The notes under the pieces were generated by a model, which searched no databases, was not told the DNA's origin, and saw nothing but the letters and a program-made list of their open reading frames with translations. A program made the translations under genes and the position numbers. This document shows, piece by piece, positions 906 through 19,664 of a stretch of DNA of 64,000 nucleotides. The stretch's first letter is position 1; every line of letters starts with the position of its first letter. Location: IMG/VR virus record IMGVR_UViG_3300017774_006254, positions 32,001 to 96,000 of that record; one strand, 5' to 3'. This stretch comes from a virus.

Positions 906-1067
906 CTTGACTTGCTTTCCAAGTGTGTTGAATGTACTACTCAACACCGGTCCCGCTGATTGAGGATTCCACGGTCCATCCATGGAGCCCACGACCCAAA
1001 ACTTCGCAGTGGTACGGAGCTTTTGCCTTGCGGCTACTGGGTCGCATGATTTGCGCTTGGCTGACTA

Positions 1068-1883
1068 TCAGCCGAGCATTCCGGAGAAGATGTGACGAGC
1101 GAACACGCCGCCCGCGTAGCCCTGATCGCCCGAAGCGAAAGACTTCGAGACGCGGCGGACCTGAGGCCTGGACTGCATGGGAATCGCGCCGTCCGTAGGC
1201 GTGATGGTGGTGACCGCTTCCATGCGGTTCATCGAGCTGTCGACTGCACCTTGGTCACCGGGCTCGCCAAGGTCGCCGATGCCAGAGATGCCGTCGCCAG
1301 AGTCGCCGAGGCCGCTCATCGGCTGATCGACGTACTCACCGATGCCAGCCGCGGCGTACATCGTGCCGAGACCAAGCATTCCCTTGTAAGGCGCGCCCGC
1401 GTGGGAGATGTCGTATCCACGACCCATCCCAGAGAGCATGCCTTCGTTGTAGTAGCCCGCCGTAGCCGTTGGAGCCGCAGTCGCCGGAGCGCTTGCGACA
1501 GCCGGAAGGATGGCAGCTGCTGGTGAGCCGCCGAGCATCGGCATGTTGCGAATGAACGATTCCGATGCAGCAAGCCCCGCTCCGATCACCGCCGCATTGG
1601 CCATTGGGCCGCTGACGAGGGAAGGAAGCGAACGCTGGGCAGCGAAGTAGGCCGGGATGAGAACGGCCGCAGCGGCAACCTTGCCATACCGTGGGTCGGC
1701 AAGCAAGCTGATTTTGCTGGAGGCGATGTTTCCAGCGACACGGGTGGCGACAAAGCCAACCGTGCCACTGAGAACCGGACTTACGACGTCCCGCACGATG
1801 TCAGAGTCCAAGAAATTCTTGAGAATCCGACGGACTCCCCGCTTCGAGCGGGCATTTTTGCGACTGGTACGGCGACGTGCCAT
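1068..1883 (-). CDS. Virion membrane/core protein, paralog of the C-terminal part of 1931..4696
   Basis: Basic N-terminus, 2-3 hydrophobic segments, an EYVDQPMSG motif and the C-terminus GYAGGVFARHIFSGMLG, shared with the neighbouring ORF. Confidence 0.7.
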   Translation of the reverse strand: MARRRTSRKNARSKRGVRRILKNFLDSDIVRDVVSPVLSGTVGFVATRVAGNIASSKISLLADPRYGKVAAAAVLIPAYFAAQRSLPSLVSGPMANAAVIGAGLAASESFIRNMPMLGGSPAAAILPAVASAPATAAPTATAGYYNEGMLSGMGRGYDISHAGAPYKGMLGLGTMYAAAGIGEYVDQPMSGLGDSGDGISGIGDLGEPGDQGAVDSSMNRMEAVTTITPTDGAIPMQSRPQVRRVSKSFASGDQGYAGGVFARHIFSGMLG

Positions 1884-1930
1884 GAGGAACTCCTTGAGAG
1901 ATGTTGCTGCTGAAGCTCAAGAGCCTAGGC

Positions 1931-4696
1931 TCAGAGCATTCCGCCGAAGAGATGACGTGCGAACACGCCGCCTGCGTAGCCCTTGCCCTCTGGCGTGACG
2001 AGCGATGCGTTGATCTCGCGATCAAGCGGCATCTGGCCCGTGACCGGAAGCGCTCCGGAGACTGGCATCTCGATCGACGCCCACGGCGGCTGGCGCTTGG
2101 AGTACATGGCGGCCAGGTCTGCATCCGCTTCGCCCGAGCCCATTTCATCGGACCCGAAGCCAGCTGCGGCCTCCATGACGCCGCCTTCCATGGCGTTCAT
2201 GGCGCCATCAATTCCGGCCATGTTGCCCGGATCGATGCCCTCGGCGTACGAGCCGACGCCCGCTGCCGCGTACATCATGCCCATGCCGCTCATCGGCTGA
2301 TCGACGTACTCGCCGGTGCCTGCTGCGGCATAGAACGCGCCCATGCCGTTCATCGGCTGGCTGACGTACTCGCCGATGCCGTTGACGTACTCACCGAGGT
2401 ACGCAGCAGCGCTTGTTCCCGCCGACACGCGCTGAATGACGCGGTCAGCGAGGGCCAGGCCCATGCCGGTGACGAGTGCGCCACGATGACGCCTCACGAT
2501 GCCCACCTTGGTCGCGAGACCAAGCGTTGCAGCGATGCCGAGGATGTTCGCGGCGATCTTGGTGTTCGAGGCGCCCGAAGCGTCCGAAGCGCCCGAGTCA
2601 AGCATGCCTCGGACCGCGCCGATGTTCGCGACACCGTTCGAGAGCAAGCGTGCTGCGATGAAACCAGCGGTGCCGCCAAGAACTGGCGTTGCGACATCAA
2701 GGATCGCGCCCATGCCGTTGCGACGAACGCCACGACGCGAACCACGACGACGACGTGAGCTGCGACGATTCATGACCACGTACTTCTGATTCCTGCGCAT
2801 CGACGACCTCTTTCTCGACGAACGACGCCTTTTGTTCGCCGTCATCTTCCTGCTTGACTTCCTGGACTTGCGCCGCCCGTACCATGCGGGGGGCTTGCGC
2901 CAACGGCTGTAGCGCCTGCGCTCCGCGTATCCACCAGTGGTGGCGCGTGCGTGCGCGTCCTTCGCAGCTCCGCCGAAGCGGAATTTGCGCACGTACGAGT
3001 GCTGCGAGACGTGCGGCGGAACGAGGACCGGATAGCCCGCGTTGCGGAACTTCCTGCCGGACTTCGGGCCGTACTCGACGAGCTGGTAGTAGCGGCCCTT
3101 GGGCGTGCCGACTCGGCTGGAGCCTGAGCCTCGGTACTTGACCTTCGAGACGGCCAGCATGTTGCGCGTCAAGCGCGAGCCACGACGGCGCGAACCACGG
3201 CGTGATCCGCGACGCGAACCGCGACGCGAACTGCGGCGCCTGTTCATGACCACGTACTTCTGGTTGGCCGTCACACGACGACGCGAACCACGACGACGGC
3301 GTGAGCCTCGACGCGATGAACGACGACCATTGGCCGTGGCGTACATCACATTCTTGCTCATGCGACGGCGCGAGTTCCGGCGAACCGAACCCCGACGCGA
3401 CCTGCGACGACGGCGACCGTTGGCTGTTGCGTACATGGTGTTCTTGCTCATCCTGCGACGTGAGTTGCGACGAACCGCTCGGCGCGAACCTCGGCGCGAC
3501 GAACGACGTGACGATCGGCGCGACGCGCGACGCGACCGGCGACGACCATTGGCCGTCATGCGGCGCTTCCTGCGACCACGGTACGTGGCGCCAACCGCGT
3601 AGCCACGCTTCGAGGAACCACGGGGCTTGCCACGCCTGCTGGTGAGACGACCAGCCGAACGCGGGATCGGGTAGGTGAGAATGCTCGGGCGTCCAGAACG
3701 GCTGAGCGGAAGTCGACCAACCCTCGTGATCGTGGGCATCAGCCCGCGCGTGAGGTACTTGTCGATGTACTCGCGGCCCGTCGTGCGAACACGCTTGCCA
3801 TGAAAGTAGCGCTTCTTGCTGGCGCGCCTGCGGGACGAACGGCGACTGCGCTTGCGCCCATTCGCCTGCATGCGGCTGTTGCGGCGACGGCGCGCTGCTG
3901 CACGCGAAGCCCTCGTCGAGTGGCGCTTGCTTCCGCGAGCGACGGCCACACGGCGACTGCCCCTGCGCGAAGACTTCTTCGAGGTCTTGCGTGACGTCTT
4001 GCGGGCCCTCTTCTTTGGACCAGTGCCAGCCTTGCGCGTGAGCGCGGCCTTGCGACCAGCCCGACGACGCGACGTGCGACGCGCTGATGTCTCGCGAATC
4101 GAAGCTCGGCGACGAGCCTTTCCGCGAGGGGTCTGCCTCGATGCGCGACGGCGACGACCACGCGACGAAATGGACATGCCACCCGCCGAACGCGTCTCAG
4201 TCACAGCCTCATGATCTTGACCACCACGAGCAGCTGCGCCCATTCCTGCGTACATCTCGTCTTCGTCGAACCCGTAGTTGCGACGAAGCCCATTGGACTT
4301 CATTGCCTTCCTCAGGGCGCTGATGTTGTATGCCATTCCACTTCTCCTCTTAGGGTTCCTGAGCATCGAGCCAGGGATCGCTTTGGTTAGGACCGTTCCG
4401 TACTCATCGGTCGCGTAGAGACGAGCTTTGCCTCGGCCCTTTCCGGTCTTGTCCGGATGACGCTCCGCCCAAGACTTCGCACCTTGCAGCGTCCTGTACT
4501 GCGGGCTTTCATGGATCTGCTTCCTACGACCAGAGATCCATTGAAATGGATTTTGCTGCGGAGGACGGCCTGTGTTCACGACAGTCAGCGCATTGACCCC
4601 AGGGTTCGAACGAAGACCACGATTCGGCTCCATGCCAGGCGATCTCTCGTACTGGCGCGCCGACTGCTTGGTGCTTCGTTTGTAGACTAGGGCCAT
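1931..4696 (-). CDS. Arg/Ser-rich protamine-like DNA-condensing core protein with a C-terminal membrane domain
   Basis: 921-aa ORF with roughly 500 aa of RRSSRRGSRR-type low-complexity sequence, then hydrophobic helices and GEYV repeats. There is an internal RBS (GAGGAG) and ATG at 4336. Confidence 0.75.
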   Translation of the reverse strand: MALVYKRSTKQSARQYERSPGMEPNRGLRSNPGVNALTVVNTGRPPQQNPFQWISGRRKQIHESPQYRTLQGAKSWAERHPDKTGKGRGKARLYATDEYGTVLTKAIPGSMLRNPKRRSGMAYNISALRKAMKSNGLRRNYGFDEDEMYAGMGAAARGGQDHEAVTETRSAGGMSISSRGRRRRASRQTPRGKARRRASIRETSARRTSRRRAGRKAALTRKAGTGPKKRARKTSRKTSKKSSRRGSRRVAVARGSKRHSTRASRAAARRRRNSRMQANGRKRSRRSSRRRASKKRYFHGKRVRTTGREYIDKYLTRGLMPTITRVGRLPLSRSGRPSILTYPIPRSAGRLTSRRGKPRGSSKRGYAVGATYRGRRKRRMTANGRRRSRRASRRSSRRSSRRGSRRAVRRNSRRRMSKNTMYATANGRRRRRSRRGSVRRNSRRRMSKNVMYATANGRRSSRRGSRRRRGSRRRVTANQKYVVMNRRRSSRRGSRRGSRRGSRRRGSRLTRNMLAVSKVKYRGSGSSRVGTPKGRYYQLVEYGPKSGRKFRNAGYPVLVPPHVSQHSYVRKFRFGGAAKDAHARATTGGYAERRRYSRWRKPPAWYGRRKSRKSSRKMTANKRRRSSRKRSSMRRNQKYVVMNRRSSRRRRGSRRGVRRNGMGAILDVATPVLGGTAGFIAARLLSNGVANIGAVRGMLDSGASDASGASNTKIAANILGIAATLGLATKVGIVRRHRGALVTGMGLALADRVIQRVSAGTSAAAYLGEYVNGIGEYVSQPMNGMGAFYAAAGTGEYVDQPMSGMGMMYAAAGVGSYAEGIDPGNMAGIDGAMNAMEGGVMEAAAGFGSDEMGSGEADADLAAMYSKRQPPWASIEMPVSGALPVTGQMPLDREINASLVTPEGKGYAGGVFARHLFGGML

Positions 4697-5043
4697 TTGG
4701 ACACACGTTCGCCTCTCGACCCGCCGTAGCAGGGAGGGACACGCCCTAGGTCTTCGATGGTTAAGCTACTGTGTCGGGGTACTCAAGTCCAACTTTTTCG
4801 ATGTCTGACAGTTATTTTGCGAGATCAGCGCTGCGAATGGCGACGTTTTCGCTTCGGCGAACCGTTGACGCACATGACGCATGTATCCACCGCGAAAGAT
4901 CCGCTCAGCACGAAGCAAGCTGTCGCCACACCAGACGCCCTCGAACCAGATATCAGCGGCTTCTTCGGCACGTTCCGCTAGGGCGTCCGACGTGTCTTCG
5001 CGCACCGCGACGCGCAGCTGCACCCGTGGGCCGTTGGCACGCA

Positions 5044-5358
5044 TCAGTCGTCCTCCGGCTCTCGCCGAGGATCTATGGTGGGTTTCTTGAGAATTCTTTC
5101 CAAGCGCTGATGTGACTGCTTGATGGTCGACTGCACGTTCCGAAGAATCGCCGCATCCGTCTGCTGAGCCGGAGGCTTTTCTTTCGTGATCGTTGTCAGT
5201 CCGAGCGCAAGCTCGCAGTCCTGAACGCGCTGTCTTGTCCTAGCCAAGTCTGACTGAAGCTTGGCGACCGCGTTCACAGCGCCTTTGACCAGCTCGTCCG
5301 ACTCTTTGATATGGGCTTGGAGTCGAATAATGAGCTTTTGCGTGGCGTCGTCAGACAT
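5044..5358 (-). CDS. Coiled-coil hypothetical protein
   Basis: Heptad-like sequence, tightly packed in the operon. Confidence 0.55.
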   Translation of the reverse strand: MSDDATQKLIIRLQAHIKESDELVKGAVNAVAKLQSDLARTRQRVQDCELALGLTTITKEKPPAQQTDAAILRNVQSTIKQSHQRLERILKKPTIDPRREPEDD

Positions 5359-5360
5359 GG

Positions 5361-5687
5361 TCAGTCTTGGTGCGCTCCACGCGACAGGAGCTGATCGATT
5401 GACTTCATCACATGCCGCATGTCCGCTTGGACCGTCGCAATGTCCTCGCGCTTGGCCAAAGTGCCAAGCTGAACCTCCATCGAATTGAAGCGCTTGTCCA
5501 CCTGAGCTTCCAACGCAACGACGGTTTTCGACGAGGCGAAAGCGACCTCAAATTCCTTGCGGATTTTCGCGTTCTCTTCGTCCAGCATGGACTTGACGTC
5601 GTTCTTGATCTTCATCCCGAGCGCCCACAGGAAGAACGGGACGATGATGGTTAGGCCTGTTTGGATATGAGTCCACTCGATAGTCAT
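5361..5687 (-). CDS. N-terminal transmembrane plus coiled-coil protein (holin-like or membrane-associated)
   Basis: MTIEWTHIQTGLTIIVPFFLWALG TM segment followed by a coiled coil; start abuts the upstream stop. Confidence 0.5.
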   Translation of the reverse strand: MTIEWTHIQTGLTIIVPFFLWALGMKIKNDVKSMLDEENAKIRKEFEVAFASSKTVVALEAQVDKRFNSMEVQLGTLAKREDIATVQADMRHVMKSIDQLLSRGAHQD

Positions 5688-6355
5688 CATCCGTCGATCC
5701 CGTCCTTGAGAACACACAGTCCGCCGCCAGCCATAACCATCAGGAAACCATCCTTCGGCGAGTAAAGGGCGAGCATGTCTCCCTTCGGCGTGCAGTAGAG
5801 GTAACAGCCGCGAGGGTTGATCTCGTAGACCTCGTTGTCGTCGAAACGCTCGACGAAAACACCGAGGCAGTATCCAAGAAGCGTCAAAGCTCCTGGGGCG
5901 CGGACAGGGAGCTTCTCAGCTTTAGCTGGCGCTGCCCTGCGTTTGCCACCGATGGTGCTCTTTGACGCCTCACGTGCAGGCTCGTACGCAATGACGCCCT
6001 TGCCAAACTCGTACTCCTTGTCGGAGCCGCCACTGCTGTCGTCGTGAACGTGCTTGTAATCTTCGTCGTCGCCGTCTTCATGCCACTTGTCAGTGCGGTA
6101 CATCGTGGATACAACTTGTCCAACGGGTACCACTGACGTGGGCAGGTCGTGATTCAGCTCGACGGTCCTGAGCGGGCGCTTTGCATGAAAGGTCTCGTAT
6201 CGACCCATGGCCCCGTCAAGATCTTTCCCGTGCCGTCCCGAGACTTCATCGGGGTCGATGTCGCGACCAACGTGACTCGTGTCCATCGAAGCGCGGCCAT
6301 TCAGTGTGGACCCGTTGGGCGCAAGGCCCGTGTCTGCTTTGCGTAGGAATCGCAT
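5687..6355 (-). CDS. Hypothetical virion protein
   Basis: ORF from MRFLRK, preceded by a GAAGAAG RBS-like sequence, in the structural operon. Confidence 0.55.
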   Translation of the reverse strand: MRFLRKADTGLAPNGSTLNGRASMDTSHVGRDIDPDEVSGRHGKDLDGAMGRYETFHAKRPLRTVELNHDLPTSVVPVGQVVSTMYRTDKWHEDGDDEDYKHVHDDSSGGSDKEYEFGKGVIAYEPAREASKSTIGGKRRAAPAKAEKLPVRAPGALTLLGYCLGVFVERFDDNEVYEINPRGCYLYCTPKGDMLALYSPKDGFLMVMAGGGLCVLKDGIDG

Positions 6356-6356
6356 A

Positions 6357-6698
6357 TCACTTCTTCTTCCGAAAATGATAGTACAGCGCAACCACGCTTG
6401 CACCAGCTGCGAACATGAGCCAGGGCGATCCTGTCACGCCGCTGATCGCGCCAGCATCGTCGCCCAGGTCCATCATGCTGTTTGGTAAGCGCCGGATTTC
6501 TCCATGCGGCAAATGGTCCCATCCCATGAATGCAGCGCCTCCAGGCAACGGCTTCACATCCGTGTCCGGATTGGCGCCGATAGGGCTGTCTACGATAGGT
6601 TTCGGCGGAAGAGCATCATCGCCGACGGAGACATGAGCCGGAGTCGTGTAGATTCCGTACGCGTTTCTGTCCCAGTTCCATACGGAGTAGAGCGCCAT
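6357..6698 (-). CDS. Small C-terminally anchored membrane protein
   Basis: DLGD motif, then TM segment WLMFAAGASVVALYY and basic tail RKKK. Confidence 0.65.
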   Translation of the reverse strand: MALYSVWNWDRNAYGIYTTPAHVSVGDDALPPKPIVDSPIGANPDTDVKPLPGGAAFMGWDHLPHGEIRRLPNSMMDLGDDAGAISGVTGSPWLMFAAGASVVALYYHFRKKK

Positions 6699-6752
6699 TT
6701 TGACTCGCTGTTGTGCACCAAGGCGCCCACCGTCAAGGTAGCACGGTCTCGC

Positions 6753-7142
6753 TTATCCACGCACTTGGATTCGAAGCATAGCTTTCAGTAGTGCGCGCAG
6801 GCCCGGAACCAAATCGAGCTTCAGCGCGTCTTCGGCATCGGCCCAGCGCATGTCGCTCGATTCCCAGTTGGGTTTGGGAGTGCCAGTCCACGCTGTGCAC
6901 ATGTACGTCGTCAGAGTGCCCCATTTACCTCTGGACTCGGCCACTTTTAAGAGCCCTTTTACTCGCAAATTAGCTTCTTCGAGGGTCTCGCGGATGACTG
7001 CCTGTCGCGGTGTTTCTCCGGGATCGACCTTCCCCATGGGGGTATTCCACCGGTCCGGCATCCATGGGGCTGTCGAGCCTCGACGCAGGAGAAGGATGCG
7101 CCCTTGCTTGTCCACAAGGATGCAAGCTGCGGCGTCCGTCAC
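6753..7142 (-). CDS. Nudix hydrolase
   Basis: Nudix box GKVDPGETPRQAVIRETLEEANL; GTG start overlaps the upstream TGA. Confidence 0.85.
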   Translation of the reverse strand: MTDAAACILVDKQGRILLLRRGSTAPWMPDRWNTPMGKVDPGETPRQAVIRETLEEANLRVKGLLKVAESRGKWGTLTTYMCTAWTGTPKPNWESSDMRWADAEDALKLDLVPGLRALLKAMLRIQVRG

Positions 7143-7423
7143 CTGACCGCTCGTCGTGAGTTCTTCTTCATGTTCGACGCGCCGAAAAAGACAGCGGCTG
7201 CGACGCCCACAAGGCCTGCCCAGCCAAGCACCACTGGCCACCCAATAGCCTGCCGAGGAGGTGGCGTTGGGTCTGAAGCTTGCCCAAGAGCCCGAGCTTG
7301 AGCAATCTCCATTGGGGAGTGGCGACAAGGTGCCGTTGAGATCCGCAACTCGTGGGGTCCCATACAGCGACACCTCGACGTCACGACACCGCACCGGCAT
7401 CTCTCGATGTAGTGGCCCATCAC
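7139..7423 (-). CDS. Small membrane protein with Cys-rich N-terminus
   Basis: CRC..CRC, ALGQ, TM helix, tail MKKNSRRAVR. Confidence 0.6.
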   Translation of the reverse strand: MMGHYIERCRCGVVTSRCRCMGPHELRISTAPCRHSPMEIAQARALGQASDPTPPPRQAIGWPVVLGWAGLVGVAAAVFFGASNMKKNSRRAVR

Positions 7424-7719
7424 TTCCTTCGGAAAGCGAAGAAAGCTCCAACGCCAAGCAGGAGCGCTCCACCGATGAGGTACGGGGTGTACGAGACCTC
7501 AGGCGCCTGTCCGTATGGGAGTCCGGTCGCGGGGTTGATCGCGCCGTACGGCATGCCTGTCGCCGGGTTCATTGGAACCTGGCCTGCGGTTGCGGAAGGA
7601 TCGGCAGCTGGAGGGGTTCGCCCCGCTGCGATGAGCTGCGCCGCAGCGGTACCCACTGCGGTCGTAATTGCCGCGACATCCTCAGCTGTGGTTCCCATCG
7701 ATCTTGCGTACGACATCAT
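7420..7719 (-). CDS. Small membrane protein (MSY family)
   Basis: MSY start, NPATG(M/L)PYG repeated twice, C-terminal TM and FRRK. Confidence 0.65.
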   Translation of the reverse strand: MMSYARSMGTTAEDVAAITTAVGTAAAQLIAAGRTPPAADPSATAGQVPMNPATGMPYGAINPATGLPYGQAPEVSYTPYLIGGALLLGVGAFFAFRRK

Positions 7720-7910
7720 CTACTCCTTCGGTTGCGTTTGACACGACGACGAGCAACTGCGTATGCCGCCCAGCTCAAGGCAACCGCTGCGACTCCAAGT
7801 GCGATTGTACCGCCGATGACAGTGTTCGCCACAGACGTGACGGTCTGCTGAATGGCATGCTCAACAGCTGGCGTGGACTGCCCAAGAGCGCGAATGTGTT
7901 GGTAGCTCAT
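7716..7910 (-). CDS. Small membrane protein (MSY family)
   Basis: MSYQHIRALGQ, TM helix, tail VKRNRRSR; ATGA coupling. Confidence 0.65.
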   Translation of the reverse strand: MSYQHIRALGQSTPAVEHAIQQTVTSVANTVIGGTIALGVAAVALSWAAYAVARRRVKRNRRSR

Positions 7911-8539
7911 TTTCGCCTGTTCCTTCGCACTCGTCCACGAGGGCTGTAAGCAAGAGACCGCGCCGTCCGCTGCGACACGTAAACGGCCGCCCCAACAAGA
8001 CCAATGGCTACCACAGCCGCAGAGCCGATGATGAGAGGCGAGGTGGGAGGTGTCAGACCAACCGTGTCTGGTGGATCTTGCGGAGATGTGCGCGGCGGAG
8101 GATCGGGGACCGGACCGACCGGATACACGTAAACGTCATCCCGAAGGGGAGGCATGATGATCCTGTATCTGCGCAGAATGATTTGTGATCGCGGGCTGAT
8201 CTCCAACGAGGCCCGAAGCAAAGCATCTCGAATGGAGGTCGCATAAGCCACAGCGGGACGCTCACTCGTCGGCCTCCAGCGCGCATACAAAAAACCACCC
8301 GTGACCCACCTGACATCAAGAACAGTCCCCATAGAAGACAGCGTAGACCGAACGATCGCTTTTGCCGTCTCAGCCTGCTCTGGGGTGATGTTCCTGACGA
8401 CCAAGTTTGCGTCGAGAGCTGGGACAAACCCATAAAGCCCAACGCCAAGCCTCGTGACGCCAACAGAGAGACCTTGGACCTCAGTTGTGTTTGCTGTCGG
8501 AATGGAAACCGGAGTTTCGCCAGAAAGTGCGTAGCTCAT
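7907..8539 (-). CDS. Membrane-anchored virion protein (MSY family)
   Basis: MSYALSG start at 8539, C-terminal TM, tail VRRNRRK. Confidence 0.65.
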   Translation of the reverse strand: MSYALSGETPVSIPTANTTEVQGLSVGVTRLGVGLYGFVPALDANLVVRNITPEQAETAKAIVRSTLSSMGTVLDVRWVTGGFLYARWRPTSERPAVAYATSIRDALLRASLEISPRSQIILRRYRIIMPPLRDDVYVYPVGPVPDPPPRTSPQDPPDTVGLTPPTSPLIIGSAAVVAIGLVGAAVYVSQRTARSLAYSPRGRVRRNRRK

Positions 8540-9102
8540 CGAAGCCTCCTGCGGCGGTTGAACGTGAGCTTGGACAGCGTCTTGATTCTCGCGTAGTTGT
8601 TCAACAAGTACCCCGCACTCACAGCGCCTGCGATACCGATGACAGCCCAAGCCATGAGCGTGTAGTTCGCCGAACGAACAAGATTTGGTTGCTCATCCTC
8701 AGAGAGCCGAGCGTACTGCGTAGGACTTGATCCCGTCAGCGCTCTGTATCGATCTTCGAGCAGGTTGTACCTGTTGACGTACTCCTGGGCCGGAGAGATC
8801 GATCCTTGCGCCCACCATGTAGAAGCCGTGTGGTTGAACGCGAGCCACTGATTTCGCAGCTCGTCCCAGTCAGCGAGAAACCGCGTGCCGACAGCGTTGG
8901 CTCGAAGCGCAGCTCGCCGTGGGATGATGTCACGGTCAAGAGACGTGATCTGCCCGTTGATCTGGTTCAACCACGCCCTGACTTCGCCAGGAAGCCAAGC
9001 CAGCCGACTCGGAGTCACCAGTTCGCCAAGAGACGAACGATTCGAGCGCATCGAGCACCCGCAACCGAGCCCATGCACGTGCGGGCGCAGTGCGTAGCTC
9101 AT
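8536..9102 (-). CDS. Membrane-anchored virion protein (MSY family)
   Basis: MSYALRPHVHGLG start at 9102, helical domain, TM, tail LTFNRRRRLR. Confidence 0.65.
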   Translation of the reverse strand: MSYALRPHVHGLGCGCSMRSNRSSLGELVTPSRLAWLPGEVRAWLNQINGQITSLDRDIIPRRAALRANAVGTRFLADWDELRNQWLAFNHTASTWWAQGSISPAQEYVNRYNLLEDRYRALTGSSPTQYARLSEDEQPNLVRSANYTLMAWAVIGIAGAVSAGYLLNNYARIKTLSKLTFNRRRRLR

Positions 9103-9647
9103 GACCGCCTCCGCCTCCTGCGGTTCGCGCGCACCGGTGCTCCTGCAAGCATGAAGTACGCACCCAAGCCAACGAGAGCCGTGCCACCAAGGATCCACGG
9201 AAGGAGGCTCCTTCGACTCACCTCGACCTCAGCAGGCTTCTCCTCCAAAGCTGACTCTGAGGTCGCCGAAGTGTTCCCTTGGGGCCGTGGCGTGACCGTT
9301 GGATCGGCGACCCGCTGGAGAGCCTCAAGACGGGTCGCCAGAGTCTTGGAAACGAGAACACGCGGCGTAACTGCGATGTTCGTTGGGAACGTGGACGGCA
9401 CTGGCAGTCCTGGTCCCGCTTCCGTCAGACCAGCAATCGTTAGGGGGCCTGCACGACCGTCGACCGCGATGGAAGCCTGCCCCCGAGAAGCGCGGAAGGC
9501 GTTGACGGCACGTTGAGCCCAGGTGGCCGTGGTGTCCCAGTACCGAGCGTCAGGTGCGTATGCGCGCCGTTCCCGATCGGGGCCCAAGGCCGTCGATGCG
9601 GTAGGCACGAACGAGTAGTCGATTGCTTGACCCAGATACGACATCAC
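9099..9647 (-). CDS. Membrane protein with peptidoglycan-binding-like motif (MSY family)
   Basis: AQRAVN...IAVDGRAGPLT resembles PG_binding_1 (VDGxxGPxT); TM; tail VRANRRRRRRS. Confidence 0.6.
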   Translation of the reverse strand: MMSYLGQAIDYSFVPTASTALGPDRERRAYAPDARYWDTTATWAQRAVNAFRASRGQASIAVDGRAGPLTIAGLTEAGPGLPVPSTFPTNIAVTPRVLVSKTLATRLEALQRVADPTVTPRPQGNTSATSESALEEKPAEVEVSRRSLLPWILGGTALVGLGAYFMLAGAPVRANRRRRRRS

Positions 9648-9683
9648 ACCCTCTTCTCGCAGCGATCACCTCGCGGCGTTTCT

Positions 9684-10355
9684 TCAGATCTCTTGCCCGT
9701 CGTCACGCAACGCGTCGACGTAATCTTCCCACTGCTTTCCACGTTTTCCAGTGGTAGCTGGGTACAGGCCAACCGTGCCATCGCTGTGCACGATCGCCGA
9801 AAGGCCTTCCTTCTTGCACAGCTTCTCGAAGCCCTTGTCCACCTTGTAGGCGGGCTCGAACTTGATGTTGATCAAAGGAGAGATCTCCTTGAACTTCGCG
9901 CGCTTTGCATCGTCAGCATCGCTGAAGACCTTTGCTCCCGCGACACCGGCCTTTGCGAAGTAGCGAGTCACCTGGTCAGCGAAAGCACTACGACTCGGAC
10001 TCCACCCTCCCGCGCTCTCGCCCTCATCCGGAAGTGCATACGAGGCAGACCCCTCGTCCTCATCATCACGGCTGTTCTTCGTAGGAGCCTTGATGTTTTG
10101 AAGCAAGAAGTACCCGCCGATTCCAGTGCCGACGGCGGTAACCAGCCAGCCCCAAATTGGGAGCGGGCCCATCTTGCGCTGCAAGAACCCCGTCTCCTGG
10201 ATTGGAGCGGGAGCTTGCGCGAGAGACAAGGGGTAAACCGGCATCCCGTTCACGTTCATCATGGGCGCAGGCTGCGCCGCCATGACCGGAGTTGGAGCTG
10301 GAGCCGCTTGCCCGCCGCCGTAGATTTCATCGAGATCGAATTGTTGTTCAGTCAT
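9684..10355 (-). CDS. Single-pass membrane protein
   Basis: TM LPIWGWLVTAVGTGIGGYFLL followed by a soluble domain. Confidence 0.6.
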   Translation of the reverse strand: MTEQQFDLDEIYGGGQAAPAPTPVMAAQPAPMMNVNGMPVYPLSLAQAPAPIQETGFLQRKMGPLPIWGWLVTAVGTGIGGYFLLQNIKAPTKNSRDDEDEGSASYALPDEGESAGGWSPSRSAFADQVTRYFAKAGVAGAKVFSDADDAKRAKFKEISPLINIKFEPAYKVDKGFEKLCKKEGLSAIVHSDGTVGLYPATTGKRGKQWEDYVDALRDDGQEI

Positions 10356-10415
10356 GCCCAGCCTTCAATTGTGAGTTCGAGATCCACCCAAAGATCTCGT
10401 CAGGTTCAGAACAGC

Positions 10416-11492
10416 TCAGTCCCATCCCATGTCGAGGCTTCGGACTTCCCCGGGCTTCGCGATGCGCACGTTCTTTGGCTTCAACGTGACGGTCATCCCG
10501 CCGCCCCTGTGGGTATTCGGCTTGCCCATCTCAGTGGCCAGTCGCGTCGCTTCAGTTTTGCTCGAAGCCAAGGCAGTGTTGTATCCGCCGCCGACCCAGT
10601 TCCACACCCACAGCTTCTTGGTGCTCTTGGGACGCGGGTTCCGAGTGACACGTCGCGAACTGGACTTTCGCTTCCGCTTTGGAATCGAGAAGGTCGTCTC
10701 TTGGGTTTTGATCTTGCAGCCAGGCCCGTGGCCGCGCTTGCCCAAGTCGGGCTTGCCACATGACGGACACGGAAAACTGCCAGCGTTCATGCGCATGCGT
10801 GATCGGCGCCTCGACCCGCGCCGACGCCTATTTGGCGTAACCACCCTCTTCGGCTTCAGGGCGAAGAATGCAAGCGCCCCCACAGCGAGCGTGCCTCCCG
10901 CGAGAACACCCCACATCGGGATGCCTCCAACGGTCTGCGTGAGGAAGGTTGGTTCAGCACTGCCGTCGTAGTACGGCTGCGCTCCAGGCATAGCGCCGGG
11001 AATGGTCGCTGGAGTGGTCGCTGGGGCCGGAAACAAGCTCGTCAGCAAGCCCGTCACCGCCGAGGTCGCAGCTGCCCCCGCATTCGCACCGCTGGAAGCA
11101 CCAGGGCTACTGGATGCGCCAGGAGACGAGGGAGGCGACCCGTACGTCCAGGCGTGCGTGTTTGTGACGCGCGATCCTGAAAGCAGAGCTTGAATCTGCG
11201 CGCCCATGCGAGCGAAGGCCTGATTCACAGCTTCGCCAGTCAGCGCACCCGACGCACGGACGGTCACCCAGAGACTGCCCGCGGGGACGCCACCAGGCGC
11301 AGAAGGGCCGCCCCAACCACTGCCGACGATCGTCCCTGGGAACGAAGCTGCGGCGGTACGCAAGGCCTGAAGCTTCTGCTCAGCCGTGCCGTTGGCTTGA
11401 ACAAGGAATCCGCCGACGAATTGCTGACCTGGCACGTAGCTCGCGCCCGTCGCCAAACCACCAAGACCACTGAACCCTCTTGTGTAACTCAT
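10416..11492 (-). CDS. Membrane virion protein with Arg-rich tail and CxxC motif (MSY family)
   Basis: MSYTRGFSGLGG start at 11492; TM; VTPNRRRRGSRRRSR; CPSCG...HGPGC. Confidence 0.65.
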   Translation of the reverse strand: MSYTRGFSGLGGLATGASYVPGQQFVGGFLVQANGTAEQKLQALRTAAASFPGTIVGSGWGGPSAPGGVPAGSLWVTVRASGALTGEAVNQAFARMGAQIQALLSGSRVTNTHAWTYGSPPSSPGASSSPGASSGANAGAAATSAVTGLLTSLFPAPATTPATIPGAMPGAQPYYDGSAEPTFLTQTVGGIPMWGVLAGGTLAVGALAFFALKPKRVVTPNRRRRGSRRRSRMRMNAGSFPCPSCGKPDLGKRGHGPGCKIKTQETTFSIPKRKRKSSSRRVTRNPRPKSTKKLWVWNWVGGGYNTALASSKTEATRLATEMGKPNTHRGGGMTVTLKPKNVRIAKPGEVRSLDMGWD

Positions 11493-11848
11493 CGCCTGCT
11501 CCTTGGGCGCCTGTTGGCGCGAACTTGCCTCGACGGCTTCAGGGTGTTCCATGCGAACAGCCCAAAGCTGCCAATCGACAACGCGAGTCCAATCAGCGAG
11601 TAACGCTCCATCCGCTGGGCTCGCTGCTCTTCCTTCGACAACTCCGTGACTTGGCCAAGGTGCGACGACTGAAGGTACGGACGACGCGGTCCGAGATGCT
11701 CAGACCGAAGACGAGGCGGCTGCGTGGTGTAGATGAATTGCGACACCGAGCCCCGCTGACGCTGCGGCTGACTGAGGTCCGCAAATACCCACGGGTTCGT
11801 AACTCCCCATGGCTGATAGCCAAGGGCTCTGTTCACTCGGTAGGTCAT
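11489..11848 (-). CDS. Small membrane protein (MTY)
   Basis: MTYRVNRALG, HLGQ, TM, tail VRANRRPRSRR. Confidence 0.6.
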   Translation of the reverse strand: MTYRVNRALGYQPWGVTNPWVFADLSQPQRQRGSVSQFIYTTQPPRLRSEHLGPRRPYLQSSHLGQVTELSKEEQRAQRMERYSLIGLALSIGSFGLFAWNTLKPSRQVRANRRPRSRR

Positions 11849-12117
11849 CACTCCTCCTGACCGCGGCGAATGCTCTTCGCGACGTTCTTCTTGATACGAG
11901 GCATGAGCCAACCCCAGACCGCGTAGCCAATTCCAATTCCCGTGGCAACTCCCAATGGAATCGTGAACGCAGGGCGCTTGTACCAAGCAAGGGCGCTGGT
12001 ATCGACTTGCCCAACGCCGTACAAGGGGACAACGCCTGCTGCCGCTGTGCGGACGCCGGTCATGTTCTGTGCGTAAGCCTCACGAGCTTGAGGCGTGACG
12101 AAGTCCTGTGCGTTCAT
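11848..12117 (-). CDS. Small membrane protein
   Basis: YGVGQ, TM, IKKN plus basic tail. Confidence 0.6.
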   Translation of the reverse strand: MNAQDFVTPQAREAYAQNMTGVRTAAAGVVPLYGVGQVDTSALAWYKRPAFTIPLGVATGIGIGYAVWGWLMPRIKKNVAKSIRRGQEE

Positions 12118-13541
12118 CGAAGTCCAGCCTTCCTCGCAAGCTTCTTGGCGTTGCGCGTGATCGACTTGCGGTTGCTCCAGGCGAAGTAGCCACCAATGCC
12201 GATCGCTGCTCCGATCAGCAAGCGTGTCGGCGTGATGAACGAAGGCGAGGCGGGAGCCACGGGCTCTGCTGTGACCTGGCCCATGCCAGCGACAGCCGCC
12301 GAGCTGAAGAGTGCCCCGAGGTCACCCTTCATTGCATTCTGGTCGCGCACCAGCGGACCAAGATGCGCCGCCGCCGCCGCCTGCATCGGAGCGCGAGTGC
12401 GCCTTACGCTCGTCGACAGACGATCGAGGTTCGGAAGCGATCCTTTTGACCGAGCGACCCCCTGAAGGTCTTTGACCGTTGCGTGCATGATGGCATGCGC
12501 GAGCGTGTCTTCGAGCGCCGACTCGGGCTGCTGCCCAAGGTCCACGAGCCGCTTGGCTGTGCTGCCAGTGCGAGCCGCTGTTCCAGCCCCGAGAGAGTCA
12601 GCTGCCTGAGCGACGAACCTCGACCGCTCCTTGGGAGCCAAAGACCTCGCCTCCGTCATGATGAGACGAGCGGCCTTCCGTCCGAAAGCTTCGACGTGGC
12701 TGCGTGGACCAGACTCGCTCTGACGCATCTCTGGCACAGGCTTGGAGACGAAGGGCGAGTACCCAGGCTTGTACGAGTTGACGTTCGTGGCCAGCGTCAC
12801 GCCGCCAGCCGAAGGCTGAACGACACGCCACTCATTCGCGGTTGTGTCCCACATCTCACTCTGTTGGACGCCAAGATCGTCTTCATCCGCGAGGTAGGCA
12901 GGTAGCGCGTACTGGTTTGCGAAGGAGCCGTCACGCGGACGCCACGTAACCCCTTCTTCCATGTCAAACACGCCGCTTCCGATCGTGCTCTGTGTCGAGT
13001 CGTTGAACTCGTAGCTCTCGCGATCGTACAGCATGTCAGAGGGGATTCCCTCGTTCGATGGCTGCTGGTTGCGGTTGCCATGCCAGGACGCTGGGGGAAC
13101 CTGAACGTCATCGTGGACTTCGAGAACTTCTGGCTCGTTGTGCATATCGTCTCGCGCGAACTTTCTGGGCGGGCTCATGTCAACATCGCCGAGGTTTGAG
13201 TCTCGGAGTGCCATGTCCGTCCGTTGCATCGAATGAGGGCGGTAGCCTACCGCGCTTCCTGGGCCCCAAGGATACGAGCCGTAGGTGGTCGCAGCCGCGT
13301 CCGGACTGTCCACGTCGTCTGCGATCTTGAATCGAGACATGCCTTCGACATCTGGAGCTGGAGCTGCGCCGGGGTTCCTTCCTGGAGTCGACAGTGTGTC
13401 TTCCTGAAGGTCGTCATCGAGGAACGATGAACCTTGCCCATTGGGACCACGGGCGTAGTCCTGCGCGTCAAGGTTCGCGTTGCCTCGCATGGTCGGAATG
13501 GCCATGTCGCCATCATCGTCAAACCCGTAATCGTTACTCAT
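12114..13541 (-). CDS. Membrane-anchored protein with acidic N-terminal half
   Basis: RBS GAGGAG before MSNDY; helical domain related to the two upstream paralogs; AGMGQ, TM, ITRN plus basic tail. Confidence 0.65.
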   Translation of the reverse strand: MSNDYGFDDDGDMAIPTMRGNANLDAQDYARGPNGQGSSFLDDDLQEDTLSTPGRNPGAAPAPDVEGMSRFKIADDVDSPDAAATTYGSYPWGPGSAVGYRPHSMQRTDMALRDSNLGDVDMSPPRKFARDDMHNEPEVLEVHDDVQVPPASWHGNRNQQPSNEGIPSDMLYDRESYEFNDSTQSTIGSGVFDMEEGVTWRPRDGSFANQYALPAYLADEDDLGVQQSEMWDTTANEWRVVQPSAGGVTLATNVNSYKPGYSPFVSKPVPEMRQSESGPRSHVEAFGRKAARLIMTEARSLAPKERSRFVAQAADSLGAGTAARTGSTAKRLVDLGQQPESALEDTLAHAIMHATVKDLQGVARSKGSLPNLDRLSTSVRRTRAPMQAAAAAHLGPLVRDQNAMKGDLGALFSSAAVAGMGQVTAEPVAPASPSFITPTRLLIGAAIGIGGYFAWSNRKSITRNAKKLARKAGLR

Positions 13542-13553
13542 GTCTCTCCTCAC

Positions 13554-14252
13554 TCACTTCAACAGGAAGTATCCGACGCCGAGGGTGGCCACAACTGCGC
13601 TTCCGCCCATCAAATAGAGGCGAATCTGCGCACTGCGCGCGTTGGCCTGGTTGGCTGATGCCTGAGCCGCTGCCGCTGCCTGAGCCATCTGAAGGTTCGC
13701 CTGAGCTTGCGCCGCCGCCGCCGCTGCCTCGCGACTCTCGCGCCCACAGTCAAGCTCTCCTCCAGCAATAGCCGATCCGATGCTTAGTACACCGCCTACG
13801 ATTTGACCGTACACGGGAATGACACTGGCCACGCCACCGACCGTCGACGCGCCGCTCGCAATGCTACATGCGGTAGCTCGGTCATTCGCGGAGAACGCGC
13901 CTAGCGCCTCTGCTCCGTGGATACGTGCCGCATCCATCCGAAGCGACTCGATACCTTCGCCACGCTTGAAGTTCGCGATGGCAAGTCGGATCGCGTCGAA
14001 CAAAGACTGGTCGTTGCCTTTTCCAGACGATACGATCTCCTGGTACATCCGATTGACATGGCGAGCCATGCCAGGAGCGATAGCGTCCAGGCTATTGCTG
14101 ATGAATCTGCGGCGTACATCAACTGGCTTCCGTGCCGCTTTGAGTAGTAGCTGCGAAGCGCGCAGTGATGCGTTCGCAAGTACCGCGTCGTGTTGCGCCG
14201 CGGAACCTACCGTCATGGCCCTTGACGGGCGAGCTGCTAGTGAGTACGTCAT
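13554..14252 (-). CDS. Membrane-anchored virion protein (paralog of 14252..14902)
   Basis: MTY start, FDAIRL motif, Ala-rich helix, C-terminal TM. Confidence 0.65.
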   Translation of the reverse strand: MTYSLAARPSRAMTVGSAAQHDAVLANASLRASQLLLKAARKPVDVRRRFISNSLDAIAPGMARHVNRMYQEIVSSGKGNDQSLFDAIRLAIANFKRGEGIESLRMDAARIHGAEALGAFSANDRATACSIASGASTVGGVASVIPVYGQIVGGVLSIGSAIAGGELDCGRESREAAAAAAQAQANLQMAQAAAAAQASANQANARSAQIRLYLMGGSAVVATLGVGYFLLK

Positions 14253-14902
14253 TACTTCAGAGCGATCTTGGCTGCGACAGCTAGCGCCAAAATCCCAGCG
14301 ATTCCGACGCCCGCATAGAGTACCGTGCGATTCGTCTGCGCGCCCGTGTTTAGCCTTGCCATCTCTAGGGCGGCGGCGGCCTGCTGCGCGGCCACTTCAG
14401 CTTGTAGGCGAAGGGTCGGGAGGTTGCAATTCCCAATCGCCGCTCCAGCATTCGCTCCTCCGACGATGGAGGTGTCTGCTCCAGATCGAAACGCTCCAAC
14501 CCAGCCGCCCGTGCTCGCTGAGAGCGAGGCACCTGTGCAGGCAAACGTGTTCGCATCCGCGGCGAAGTCGCCAAGCCCCGACATGCCACGAGCCGCCTGA
14601 CTTCCAGCCCATTCCTGTAGGCGATTGGCGAGCACGAGCCGAATCGCGTCGAACACCGCTTGATCCGGAGTGCGCGTGCGAGAGATGATGCCGATCTTTG
14701 CGATCGCTTCGTCTCCCATCTTTGGCCACAGGTTGTTCAGGCGGTTGCGAAGCCAAGCCATTCTGGATGAAGCGTCAACCTTGGCCATGTGGAGCATGAC
14801 TTCGCTCGCCATGAGCGAAGCTTTGCTCACGAACGGATCTGTCTGAGCAAGCTGCCCCGAGACGACTTGCCCGAGCCCAGCCATTGCTTGTGCGTAGCTC
14901 AT
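14252..14902 (-). CDS. Membrane-anchored virion protein (MSY family)
   Basis: MSYAQAMAGLGQ start at 14902, FDAIRL, MSGLGD, C-terminal TM. Confidence 0.65.
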   Translation of the reverse strand: MSYAQAMAGLGQVVSGQLAQTDPFVSKASLMASEVMLHMAKVDASSRMAWLRNRLNNLWPKMGDEAIAKIGIISRTRTPDQAVFDAIRLVLANRLQEWAGSQAARGMSGLGDFAADANTFACTGASLSASTGGWVGAFRSGADTSIVGGANAGAAIGNCNLPTLRLQAEVAAQQAAAALEMARLNTGAQTNRTVLYAGVGIAGILALAVAAKIALK

Positions 14903-15234
14903 CGACTTCTCCGACGCGACTTTCGGCCGCTTCTGTTCTTGGTGACACCAGGACGCGCAAAGCCTTGCGTGAACGCAATCACCGGGACAACAACAGGGAG
15001 CATCGCGCCCCCAAGAAACCACGCGAGCGTCCACCCGAGGTCGCCGCGATTCCGCTTGTACCCATGGTACGCAGAAACCGCTGCGCTGATAGTCGAGAGT
15101 CCCCAACCAGCAACCACCATCGCTCCTGTCGGTCGGAACGTGACGGTGATCGGAGACGGAACTGAATCGATCGCCTGTCCGAACGCTGAGAGGCCGATTC
15201 CGGGACCGTCGTAGTAGTTCGTCTTGGTGGTCAT
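14899..15234 (-). CDS. Two-TM membrane protein
   Basis: AYHGYKRN between two TM helices; tail VTKNRSGRKSRRRSR. Confidence 0.65.
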   Translation of the reverse strand: MTTKTNYYDGPGIGLSAFGQAIDSVPSPITVTFRPTGAMVVAGWGLSTISAAVSAYHGYKRNRGDLGWTLAWFLGGAMLPVVVPVIAFTQGFARPGVTKNRSGRKSRRRSR

Positions 15235-15235
15235 A

Positions 15236-15832
15236 TCAGTCAATCTCGAAAATGGTGTATTGCTTGATCCGACGAAGCATATTCCCTGTCCGGCGCCCCG
15301 CAACAGGATCGAGGACCCACCACTGCTTCGTGCGGGGATCTTGAGCACGCGCAAAGACGTGCGTATGAATTTTCGGCTCGCCAGCCAACTGCGGCTTGAA
15401 GCCACAAGTGACAAACTGACCTCGGGCCCCGATTGTCAGACAAGATGTAGCAATCGCGAGAGCGATGTCGTCACAGTCGCAAGCGGCACGCCCCGCAAGG
15501 GCATCAGCCAGAATACGGTCGGGACTGCGAATCAGCTCAACGTGCAGAGGATCGCGCGTGTACCTGGTTGCGTTTCCCCACCAGCGGGAGATCGCGATGC
15601 ACTCGCTCGAATAGTCCTTCGGCCGCACGTTGTTGATGATCTGTTCCGTGTGTCTGCGGAAACTGATACTGCGCTCCCCCTGCAACGCATTCTGCACCAT
15701 CACTCGCGGGTCGACGAGACCCTTTGCGAGGTTGATCATCACGGCAACAGTGTGATCAGTACCTCGGTATGGTTCCGTGGTACCAACTGCGTTGTTGTAG
15801 GTCGGTGAGTATGAGTTTGCTCTGAGCTGCAT
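15236..15832 (-). CDS. Transglutaminase-like cysteine protease (candidate maturation protease)
   Basis: Catalytic-triad motifs ACDCDD, HTHVF and WWVLDP; YTRDP upstream. Confidence 0.8.
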   Translation of the reverse strand: MQLRANSYSPTYNNAVGTTEPYRGTDHTVAVMINLAKGLVDPRVMVQNALQGERSISFRRHTEQIINNVRPKDYSSECIAISRWWGNATRYTRDPLHVELIRSPDRILADALAGRAACDCDDIALAIATSCLTIGARGQFVTCGFKPQLAGEPKIHTHVFARAQDPRTKQWWVLDPVAGRRTGNMLRRIKQYTIFEID

Positions 15833-16054
15833 GCAGATACCTGTGCCCAGGCGCCCACATGAAGTCTCGCACGATCTCTACTCAGCGCGCAAGGAAACGA
15901 CTCGACCTTGCCTTGTCCCTGTCACCTGGCCCTGGACGCTCCATCCGCTCGAAGCGAGCCTCAAGTTCTCGTCCAATTGCCTCGCCTTGTCGCATAAGCT
16001 CTGCCACTTCCGCTCTCGTGAGAGTGCGCGGTTTTGAGACTGGCGAGCCTTGCG

Positions 16055-16393
16055 TCATCTGGTCGACATCTTCTTGCCGTCACGCTTCAGGAATTTCGGA
16101 GTCTCTGTCTTTCGTTCCATGATGGGACGCGCTTGCGCAATCAACTCCGCACGCACCGAGATCGGTCGCTCGCCCTGCCACGTAGTCACAAGGGTGAACT
16201 GGCCGCCTTCCGGTATCTCGATCGACCGCATCAGCTTCGACGGTATCGTGTAGGTACTACCGTCGTGAAAGCGAACGTGCGCCCGCTCCCCTTGGTACTT
16301 GACAACCATTGCTGGTTTTCGTTCCTCACGCGGGGGAGCGGGCGTCGCATAGCTGCCAAGCCCTCGAAGACCCTTGGAAGTCGGGGCAGACAT
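16055..16393 (-). CDS. Hypothetical protein
   Basis: Coupled ORF in the operon; LRGLGSY motif. Confidence 0.5.
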   Translation of the reverse strand: MSAPTSKGLRGLGSYATPAPPREERKPAMVVKYQGERAHVRFHDGSTYTIPSKLMRSIEIPEGGQFTLVTTWQGERPISVRAELIAQARPIMERKTETPKFLKRDGKKMSTR

Positions 16394-16665
16394 TAGGCCT
16401 GCTCGGTCTCCTTCGACTGCACGAAGCCCCAGAGGCGCATCATCTTCATGGGGTCTTGCATGATGGATCGGAATGCCTCCTTGGCCCCAGATGCATTGTC
16501 GCCGACGAGTTCGCCAAGTTCAGCAACGACTGCATCCATCTCCTGCATTTTTTCACGCAGGAGTGAGTCCGGAGCTTCCAAGTTCAAAGCCACGAGAAGC
16601 TCCTCGCCGATGGCGATTGCCCTCATCGCTTTCTCTCCGACGCCCTTCAGCTCTTCTTCGGTCAT
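16393..16665 (-). CDS. Hypothetical protein
   Basis: Coupled helical ORF. Confidence 0.5.
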   Translation of the reverse strand: MTEEELKGVGEKAMRAIAIGEELLVALNLEAPDSLLREKMQEMDAVVAELGELVGDNASGAKEAFRSIMQDPMKMMRLWGFVQSKETEQA

Positions 16666-19088: not shown

Positions 19089-19632
19089 TCACTTCTGACG
19101 AGTCCGCGGCGGCATCGCCTGAGGCAGCTTCCGGCTCCGCATCGCCCTCAGTGGGCTTCTCGTCGTCTCGCGTGCCCATCAGATCTTCTGCAAGATCCTC
19201 GATGCTCTCGCTGCAACGGTTGAAGGCCGCCTGAAGCTCCTCGTCGTCAGGGTACTTCTTCTGAAGAAGAGAGCCTAGCGCGAAGAAGTCTTCCTCAAGC
19301 GCTTCCAGAGCTTCAGCACCGGGGACAATCAGCTCGCCGTTGGCCCCCTCGACAGGAGTGCCGAGCTTCGCCAGTGCGCCGCCGTACACCTGGCGCATGC
19401 TCAAGACCTGCTCTTCGGTGCTCACCGCGAGGGTGTAGATGTCGAAGAGGCCCTGGCCCATGAGCGTGACGATGTCTTGCAGGCGCGGGTAGAGGAACTG
19501 CGCGAGGAACGCCTTGAGCTGCTCCGGCTTGGCGAACTCCTTGTCGCGGACAAGCTTCTGACGATCTTCCTTGAGCTTGCCGATCAGGTTGACGAATTCT
19601 GGAGCGAGGGGGACTTCGTTTTCTTGCGCCAT
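19066..19632 (-). CDS. Hypothetical acidic helical protein
   Basis: ORF from MAQENEV with an RBS-like sequence. Confidence 0.55.
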   Translation of the reverse strand: MAQENEVPLAPEFVNLIGKLKEDRQKLVRDKEFAKPEQLKAFLAQFLYPRLQDIVTLMGQGLFDIYTLAVSTEEQVLSMRQVYGGALAKLGTPVEGANGELIVPGAEALEALEEDFFALGSLLQKKYPDDEELQAAFNRCSESIEDLAEDLMGTRDDEKPTEGDAEPEAASGDAAADSSEVSENVDDV

Positions 19633-19664
19633 TTTGGACTCTTCTTTCTGATGGATCTGGTGGA

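Follow-up and report, generated by a model that had tools for sequence, protein, structure and literature searches.

A conserved Gly-hydrophobic-Gly signal on virion proteins of an uncultured virus clade, and a transglutaminase-fold enzyme that may cut at it

Do the structural proteins of an uncultured virus share a short processing signal, and which of its enzymes could read such a signal? The question is raised by a stretch of 64,000 nucleotides (hereafter, the window), bases 32001–96000 of the IMG/VR virus record IMGVR_UViG_3300017774_006254 (161,502 bp, direct terminal repeats; the virus is uncultured). Positions 93–19839 of the window hold one block of minus-strand genes, tightly packed and in many cases joined by ATGA overlaps; the genes and sites of this block are given below on the minus strand. 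An earlier note on this DNA had listed recurrent strings such as MSGLGD and MAGLGQ in the block proteins, likened them to adenovirus protease sites and tentatively assigned them to an encoded transglutaminase-like protease. The candidate enzyme is the 198-amino-acid (aa) product of the gene at 15236–15832. A check of the minus strand recovered each of the listed strings, with one correction: LLGLGT actually reads MLGLGT (1362–1379).

The motif was confirmed as a genuine, selected short linear signal that acts at the protein level on virion proteins. We searched the block proteins (4976 aa, window 1068–16665) for a hydrophobic residue, any residue and G-[LMIV]-G, that is, [MLFIV]xG[LMIV]G. The pattern occurred 18 times, compared with 2.29 ± 1.54 occurrences in whole-protein shuffles and 3.0–3.9 in local shuffles of 10–30-residue blocks, which keep the local richness in Gly and hydrophobic residues; 0 of 2000 shuffles reached 18 with either procedure. 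The stricter [MLF]xG[LMI]G was found 10 times (0.87 expected from whole-protein shuffles, 0/2000). Eight of the 18 matches stem from two repeat-bearing paralogous core proteins. When these were left out, 10 matches remained, compared with 1.57 expected from whole-protein shuffles (0/2000) and 2.0–3.0 from local ones (at most 1/2000). The control patterns GG-Φ, A-Φ-A and G-Φ-A (Φ, hydrophobic) were not enriched in the block, and the rest of the 161-kb genome (43,149 aa) contained nine matches vs 13.0 ± 3.7 expected, which is the chance level. Gly-rich composition as the cause is ruled out by both kinds of shuffle and by the control patterns, so the recurrence that had been claimed holds beyond composition. 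The codons beneath the motif vary (20 distinct 9-mers among 30 G-Φ-G instances), which places the signal at the protein level and rules out a DNA-level repeat as its source.

Some matches are not part of the signal. LLGVGA, LVGLGA and VTGMGL sit within hydrophobic segments or Gly-rich membrane helices and are probably compositional, and LRGLGL lies 5' of the true MTY start of its gene. These three helix matches and the eight in the paralogs are what could be said for chance, or for Gly-rich composition combined with paralogy, as the whole explanation. We regard that explanation as extremely improbable, as no shuffle reached the observed count, the controls were flat, and both the ortholog conservation and the strand bias described below speak against it. 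The motif pattern was fixed only after instances had been seen, and the conservation across orthologs is therefore the stronger evidence.

Relatives were retrieved with three probes (the block's capsid candidate, a 479-aa protein and the enzyme), which yielded eight IMG/VR contigs (62–298 kb) and 79 metagenome loci with syntenic blocks; ortholog and leader statistics were drawn from 86 related metagenomic loci. In at least five unrelated protein families, the alignments held G-Φ-G while the flanks drifted and gained insertions and deletions. To judge from these alignments, purifying selection is acting on G-Φ-G amid divergent, indel-rich flanks. In the 112-aa protein encoded directly upstream of the enzyme gene (gene 16055–16393), LRGLGS occupies residues 9–14 (16352..16369), and about 40 of 49 orthologs have [LVMI][RK]G[LI]G[SGN]Y at this site, again between variable flanks. 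VAGMGQ (12276..12293) stands about 20 residues ahead of the membrane anchor of the 479-aa protein (gene 12114–13553), and all 33 orthologs covering the site have G[LM]G[QEDA..]. The corresponding sites of the 89-aa protein (gene 11848–12117; LYGVGQ, 12007..12024, about 18 residues ahead of the anchor) and the 119-aa protein (gene 11489–11848; SSHLGQ, 11651..11668, about 17 residues ahead) are kept as PLYG(x0-3)[LM]G[QE] in 10 of 10 orthologs and as LG[QEDAT..] or LSGLG in 30 orthologs, respectively. The tail-anchored 216-aa protein (gene 14252–14902) has two sites. At the internal MSGLGD (aa 107–112, 14567..14584), 39 of 40 orthologs keep GLG or something close to it between flanks rich in indels, and at MAGLGQ, which ends the N-terminal MSY leader (14867..14884), most of the 40 have [LM]G[LM]G.

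The two core paralogs carry the motif in tandem repeats. In the 921-aa Arg/Ser-rich core protein (gene 1931–4696), the repeat region at 2249..2386 is built of GEYVxQP[ML]xG[ML]G and YAAAGxG and includes VNGIGE, MNGMGA and MSGMGM; the first of these units was present in 2–5 copies in 6 of 6 genomes. The 271-aa paralog (gene 1068–1883) contains LSGMGR, MLGLGT, MSGLGD and ISGIGD (1272..1436). Here, APYxGM[LF]G[LM]G was found in 4 of 6 genomes and the other sites were less conserved. A longer module of this paralog, [VI]D[IV]SH[AY]GAPYxGM[LF]GLG (1302–1436), also occurs in relatives (G002 and L042), just after M[ST]Y at the start of proteins that differ in other respects.

Taken over all families, the conserved core is G-[LM]-G, or merely [LM]-G with a polar residue after it. 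At position -4 a hydrophobic residue is no more than preferred, and the 479-aa family has Ala there. The residue after the motif swaps between orthologs (Q/E/D/A/S/T/N/G), and an exchangeable position of this kind resembles a protease subsite.

The motif occurs in three settings: at the end of N-terminal leaders, in linkers 10–40 residues before a C-terminal anchor, and in the tandem repeats of the core paralogs. The leaders comprise about 4–30 residues and start with Met-Ser/Thr-Tyr (M[ST]Y). In the 86 loci, the coding strand had 219 open reading frames (ORFs) of at least 45 aa that open with ATG and encode M[ST]Y at their start, compared with four on the opposite strand, and a Shine-Dalgarno-like sequence preceded 129 of 195 such starts. 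Among the 195 distinct M[ST]Y ORFs, 98 had G[LMIVF]G within 40 residues of the start. The density of G-Φ-G per 1000 residues was 30 at positions 1–10 and 21.5 at positions 11–20, compared with 3–6 elsewhere, a five- to ten-fold excess in residues 1–20, bearing out the remark that the sites often lie near the N-terminus. Grouped by their mature parts, the M[ST]Y proteins form 68 families, 34 with a G-Φ-G leader and 45 with a looser leader ending in Φ-G and a polar residue. Leu, Tyr, Met, Phe or Val stood two positions ahead of the motif in 66 of the 98 leaders, and the next residue after it was most often Gln (26), Ala (21) or Asp (10). The second location that had been noted, just before the membrane anchor, was also recovered: in 272 tail-anchored ORFs, a weaker cluster 10–39 residues ahead of the anchor reached 5–8.5 per 1000 vs about 1.4–4 elsewhere, a figure that rests on about three families. 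Tagged genes were found beyond the window as well.

The start codons have features of their own. The context was ATGA in 170 of the 195 M[ST]Y starts, AGC-TAC was the dominant codon pair (97/195), and TCN Ser codons accounted for 22. Ser or Thr at position 2 may thus partly reflect the stop-start overlap (ATGA), besides selection at the protein level. An upstream Tyr as an element of the internal signal was considered and rejected (frequency 0.016 vs 0.022 in the background); His was enriched instead (0.026 vs 0.008).

This anatomy bears on whether the motif is cut at all. It might instead be an address or docking tag: an assembly factor, the capsid shell or else the enzyme-like protein would bind it and so recruit its carriers into the viral membrane or particle, and the tag would remain part of the mature proteins. 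Conservation and modularity would fit such a tag equally well, the leader evidently holds information beyond a cut site, given its conserved M[ST]Y start, and proteins that would not be substrates do not avoid the motif. However, M[ST]Y and the motif are separated by anything from 0 residues (MSYLGQ) to about 25, and this spacer is frequently Arg-rich. A single epitope is hard to square with two conserved pieces set so variably apart, and equally hard to square with internal copies in linkers and tandem repeats, and Gly-hydrophobic-Gly offers little binding surface. A variable spacer between two conserved ends rather fits a propeptide whose two ends matter. We favor a cut site over a binding tag because the motif lies at the ends of variable leaders, in linkers and in repeats, has a small-hydrophobic-small character and tolerates exchange of the following residue; an uncut tag seems to us unlikely, but it deserves to be taken seriously.

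Which enzyme, then, could cut there? The 198-aa protein is the best-conserved gene product of the block, with more than 150 homologs in metagenomes (57–85% identity). Asp119-Cys120-Asp121 (D-C-D), His156 and His158 (H-T-H) and Asp175 (L-D-P) were invariant in 25 homologs, in the order of a Cys-His-Asp triad. The AlphaFold2 model (predicted local distance difference test score, pLDDT, 80.7) matched 3kd4 and 3isr with a Foldseek probability of 1.0, and VIA gave Z 13.2 to 3kd4 (149 residues, 2.9 Å) and Z 11–12 to the cores of TG3, FXIII and TG2. The structural matches as a whole (Z 13.2 to 8.8) comprised transglutaminase-like putative proteases, TglA, PNGase/Rad4, LapG, PeiP, TgpA and animal transglutaminase cores. 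On the strength of this model, the enzyme is a transglutaminase-core fold with a Cys-His-Asp triad. The Pfam profile PF01841 matched 11 of 25 close homologs (best 1.9e-5) and reached 4e-14 in remote relatives; the protein of the window itself gave no match. A profile search with the enzyme family returned 2061 cluster representatives at E ≤ 0.001. The equivalent search against PDB sequences was discarded, as it returned only designed Kelch repeats with spurious summed scores.

Three close homologs of the enzyme (P0241, P0242 and P0243) are interrupted by an intein exactly before the catalytic Cys of D-C-D. One is a mini-intein and two contain a LAGLIDADG-like endonuclease; all start with Cys and end with Ser-Asn, and the catalytic Cys is the +1 residue. 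An intein exactly at this Cys is a sign of an essential active site.

Other proteases were searched for in the same genome. PF00770 (adenain) and PF02902 (Ulp1) had no match in the 161-kb genome at E ≤ 1, and neither PF03412 (C39), PF06035 (BTLCP/LapG) nor the prohead protease profiles PF04586 and PF03420 had a match there; one remote relative of the enzyme gave a sub-threshold PF06035 match of 18 bits. The only peptidase-like domains that a Pfam scan of the ORFs did find were M23, a SprT-like domain, DUF2201_N and, in a ChlI/ComM protein, a Lon_C-like segment. These scans thus detected no other plausible maturation protease in the genome. The sites could nevertheless be cut by a host protease or by a viral one that went unrecognized, such as an HEXXH or SprT-like protein or the DUF2201 metallopeptidase, with the transglutaminase-fold enzyme acting elsewhere, for example on a hydrophobic-x-x-Asn motif before Arg-rich tails. 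Metallopeptidase-like genes do exist in the genome, and two distinct conserved signals on the same proteins (G-Φ-G, and x-x-Asn before the Arg tails) are matched by one obvious enzyme. However, these genes lie outside the structural block, none adjoins the tagged genes, and genes of these kinds typically belong to lysis, DNA repair or MoxR-vWA systems. We consider this explanation quite unlikely.

As for the second signal itself, the tagged proteins encoded at 7420–15234 mostly end in a membrane helix, hydrophobic-x-x-Asn and an Arg-rich tail (..RRN-RRK, ..TFN-RRRR, ..RAN-RRRR). The x-x-Asn also recurs ahead of the Arg blocks of the 921-aa protein and is separate from G-Φ-G. NCBIfam sorting-signal models gave a single borderline match, to LPXTG_anchor, due to the membrane helix and basic tail.

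Our proposal is as follows. G-[Leu/Met]-G is a clade-wide short linear signal on the virion membrane and core proteins; the second position before it is often hydrophobic or aromatic, and the residue behind it is often Gln, Ala, Asp or some other small polar one. The signal marks the end of a short, hypervariable M[ST]Y leader as well as exposed linkers before anchors and between Arg-rich core modules. The 198-aa enzyme, encoded at the head of the tagged cluster, would recognize the small-hydrophobic-small pattern and cut there, so that, while the particle is assembled or afterwards, leaders are removed and ectodomains or core modules come free of their anchors. We infer both that a bond at the motif is cut, whichever bond that may be, and that this enzyme is the cutter. 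Cysteine proteases acting at small-residue motifs have precedents in adenain (PMC7998265) and in the transglutaminase-like LapG, which cuts at Ala-Ala (PMC10990149). The confinement of the enrichment to the structural block, with the remaining proteome at the chance level, supports the proposal.

Several points weigh against it. The earlier suggestion of a transglutaminase-like protease was borne out as to fold and invariant triad; however, the same fold also houses cross-linkers, amidases and isopeptidases and cannot by itself tell a protease apart, and the animal transglutaminase cores score close to the putative protease 3kd4 (Z 11–12 vs 13.2). Gln is 6–7-fold over-represented directly after the motif, which would also suit a transglutaminase substrate. 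The related loci were fished partly with the enzyme, so that the co-occurrence of enzyme and tag in them is not independent. In a family of 232-aa proteins, some orthologs have lost the motif and still start with M[ST]Y. The motif was not significantly depleted in non-structural proteins at the counts given above.

The first two of these points could be read as transamidation: the enzyme would be a genuine transglutaminase or a glutaminase, the Gln of G-L-G-Q would serve it as acyl donor, and it would either cross-link the tails to capsid or membrane proteins or deamidate Gln to Glu. Besides its place as the commonest residue after leader motifs, Gln follows the motif in 20 of 33 members of the 479-aa family and 9 of 10 of the 89-aa family, and the alternation of Q and E among orthologs would fit deamidation. 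Yet orthologous sites carry Ala, Asp, Ser, Asn, Gly, Thr or Val in place of Gln, the best-conserved site, G[LI]G[NSG]Y, has no Gln, and the invariant part is G-Φ-G. Transamidation is therefore, in our judgment, very unlikely. Returning to cleavage, we think that G-Φ-G may well be cut by the 198-aa enzyme in particle maturation, and we hold this tentatively, at a little under even confidence.

The comparison with adenovirus has to be drawn with care. The consensus of adenain (AVP, peptidase C5) is (M/I/L)XGX-G or (M/I/L)XGG-X (PMC7998265). As in adenovirus, a hydrophobic-x-Gly-x-Gly pattern is found on several virion precursors, including Arg-rich DNA-condensing core proteins and a membrane-active protein, the sites lie near termini, and a cysteine enzyme is encoded by the virus (PMC7998265); in the present virus the cleavage is conjectural. 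The resemblance to adenain sites that had been pointed out lies in the pattern, which overlaps (M/I/L)XGX-G (the 10 strict matches above), but it does not extend to the selected core, as the conserved Ala at -4 and minimal Φ-G-Gln sites show, nor to the enzyme. The latter has a transglutaminase fold with Cys120 followed by His156/158 and Asp175, whereas adenain belongs to clan CE and has the order His-Glu/Asp-Cys. Because the fold, the optional -4 residue, the restriction of the middle residue to Leu/Met (Ile/Val/Phe) and the bacterial host all differ, any likeness to adenovirus maturation is convergent.

Phage T4 provides another parallel: capsid targeting sequences on its internal proteins are cut off by the prohead protease gp21, a serine protease (S77) with a Leu/Ile-x-Glu site. 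Both systems place a short N-terminal leader with a simple consensus end on otherwise unrelated proteins, here the 68 M[ST]Y families, 34–45 of them with the leader motif. In contrast to T4, PF03420 and PF04586 are absent here and the proteins are tail-anchored membrane proteins. Double-glycine leaders are likewise short and N-terminal, have a Gly-rich end and are removed by a papain-like C39 peptidase. Here there is no PF03412 and no ABC exporter, and the leader grammar is an M[ST]Y start with a G-Φ-G end. LapG, a BTLCP transglutaminase-like cysteine protease that cuts LapA adhesins at a di-alanine (PMC10990149), shares the superfold and the triad (Z 8.8–8.9) and cuts a small-residue pair near the N-terminus of a surface protein retained at the membrane (PMC10990149). 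It differs in that the present enzyme has no PF06035 match, the motif here is Gly-Φ-Gly, the putative substrates are many and the setting is a virion. The system would work like adenovirus maturation and T4 capsid-targeting leaders, and is a member of neither, since the defining proteases are absent and the enzyme has another fold.

The motif also occurs at further positions in the block. The 358-aa protein (gene 10416–11492) has FSGLGG in its MSY leader (11457..11474), with MMGLGD in an ortholog and a G-Φ-G leader in 6 of 6 family members. MSYLGQ (9627..9644) is the minimal leader of the 181-aa protein (gene 9099–9644), and its orthologs start with MSYAGLGQ or MSYRAGMG. In the 188-aa protein (gene 8536–9102), the MSY leader contains VHGLGC (9061..9078), which is LHGMGC in one ortholog and GGLGQ or ESLGA in others. 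The 64-aa protein (gene 7716–7910) has IRALGQ (7878..7895) in its MSY leader, and NRALGY (11816–11833) is N-terminal in the 119-aa protein. The 112-aa protein is soluble and beta-rich and holds the best-conserved motif copy, G[LI]G[NSG]Y, at residues 9–15; in its most distant relatives the site is x-x-V-[ST]-Y. The protein co-occurs with the enzyme in 59 loci (partly fished with the enzyme), and may act as a partner or regulator of the enzyme or be a model substrate for it.

Besides the genes named so far, the block encodes a coiled-coil-like protein of 808 aa listed ahead of the 112-aa protein, a NUDIX protein and about 15 small proteins, most of which end in a membrane helix and an Arg-rich tail. 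At its end lies the capsid candidate (93–992), a beta-rich and highly conserved protein with more than 250 homologs in metagenomes (about 70% identity or more). Its AlphaFold2 model, for 93–920, was poor (pLDDT 53), and a wide structure search gave weak beta-sandwich or jelly-roll-like matches alone (Z at most 6.2). An Atlas structure search gave no usable match, and no relatives of it were found in the phage collection searched. Apart from the NUDIX domain, the block proteins had no recognizable family in Pfam or PHROGs, and no terminase, portal or tail families were seen in the Pfam scan of the genome. A bacterial host is indicated by muramidase, LysM and M23 domains encoded in other parts of the genome. 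The virus is apparently a novel, tailless bacterial virus, and we found no description of the clade or the tag in the literature.

Outside the block, the window contains a MoxR-like AAA+ ATPase gene followed by a gene for a DUF2201 protein with a putative metallopeptidase and a VWA-like domain (35363–37911). Its plus-strand replication part encodes a TnpB/Cas12f-like protein with a TNB domain (42613–44487) and a SNF2/ResIII helicase that is split by an intein with Hint and homing-endonuclease domains (49383–52505).

For the clade as a whole (widespread, uncultured bacterial viruses of about 140–300 kb), we would suggest, with somewhat more reserve than for the cleavage itself, that an adenovirus-like maturation has arisen independently, in which a transglutaminase-fold protease trims M[ST]Y...G-Leu/Met-G leaders off dozens of tail-anchored proteins and cuts Arg-rich core polyproteins at the same signal. 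If this is true, the enzyme represents a new family of virion maturation proteases with a new, readable substrate code. If the motif is a cut site, the virion proteome of an entire uncultured clade, and the ends of its mature proteins, could be predicted by a rule read from sequence; the transglutaminase fold would join those known among viral maturation proteases, and bacterial viruses and adenoviruses would each have invented a Gly-x-Gly code on their own. Even if it is not cut, the motif is still a short and portable label for proteins destined for a membrane-containing particle.

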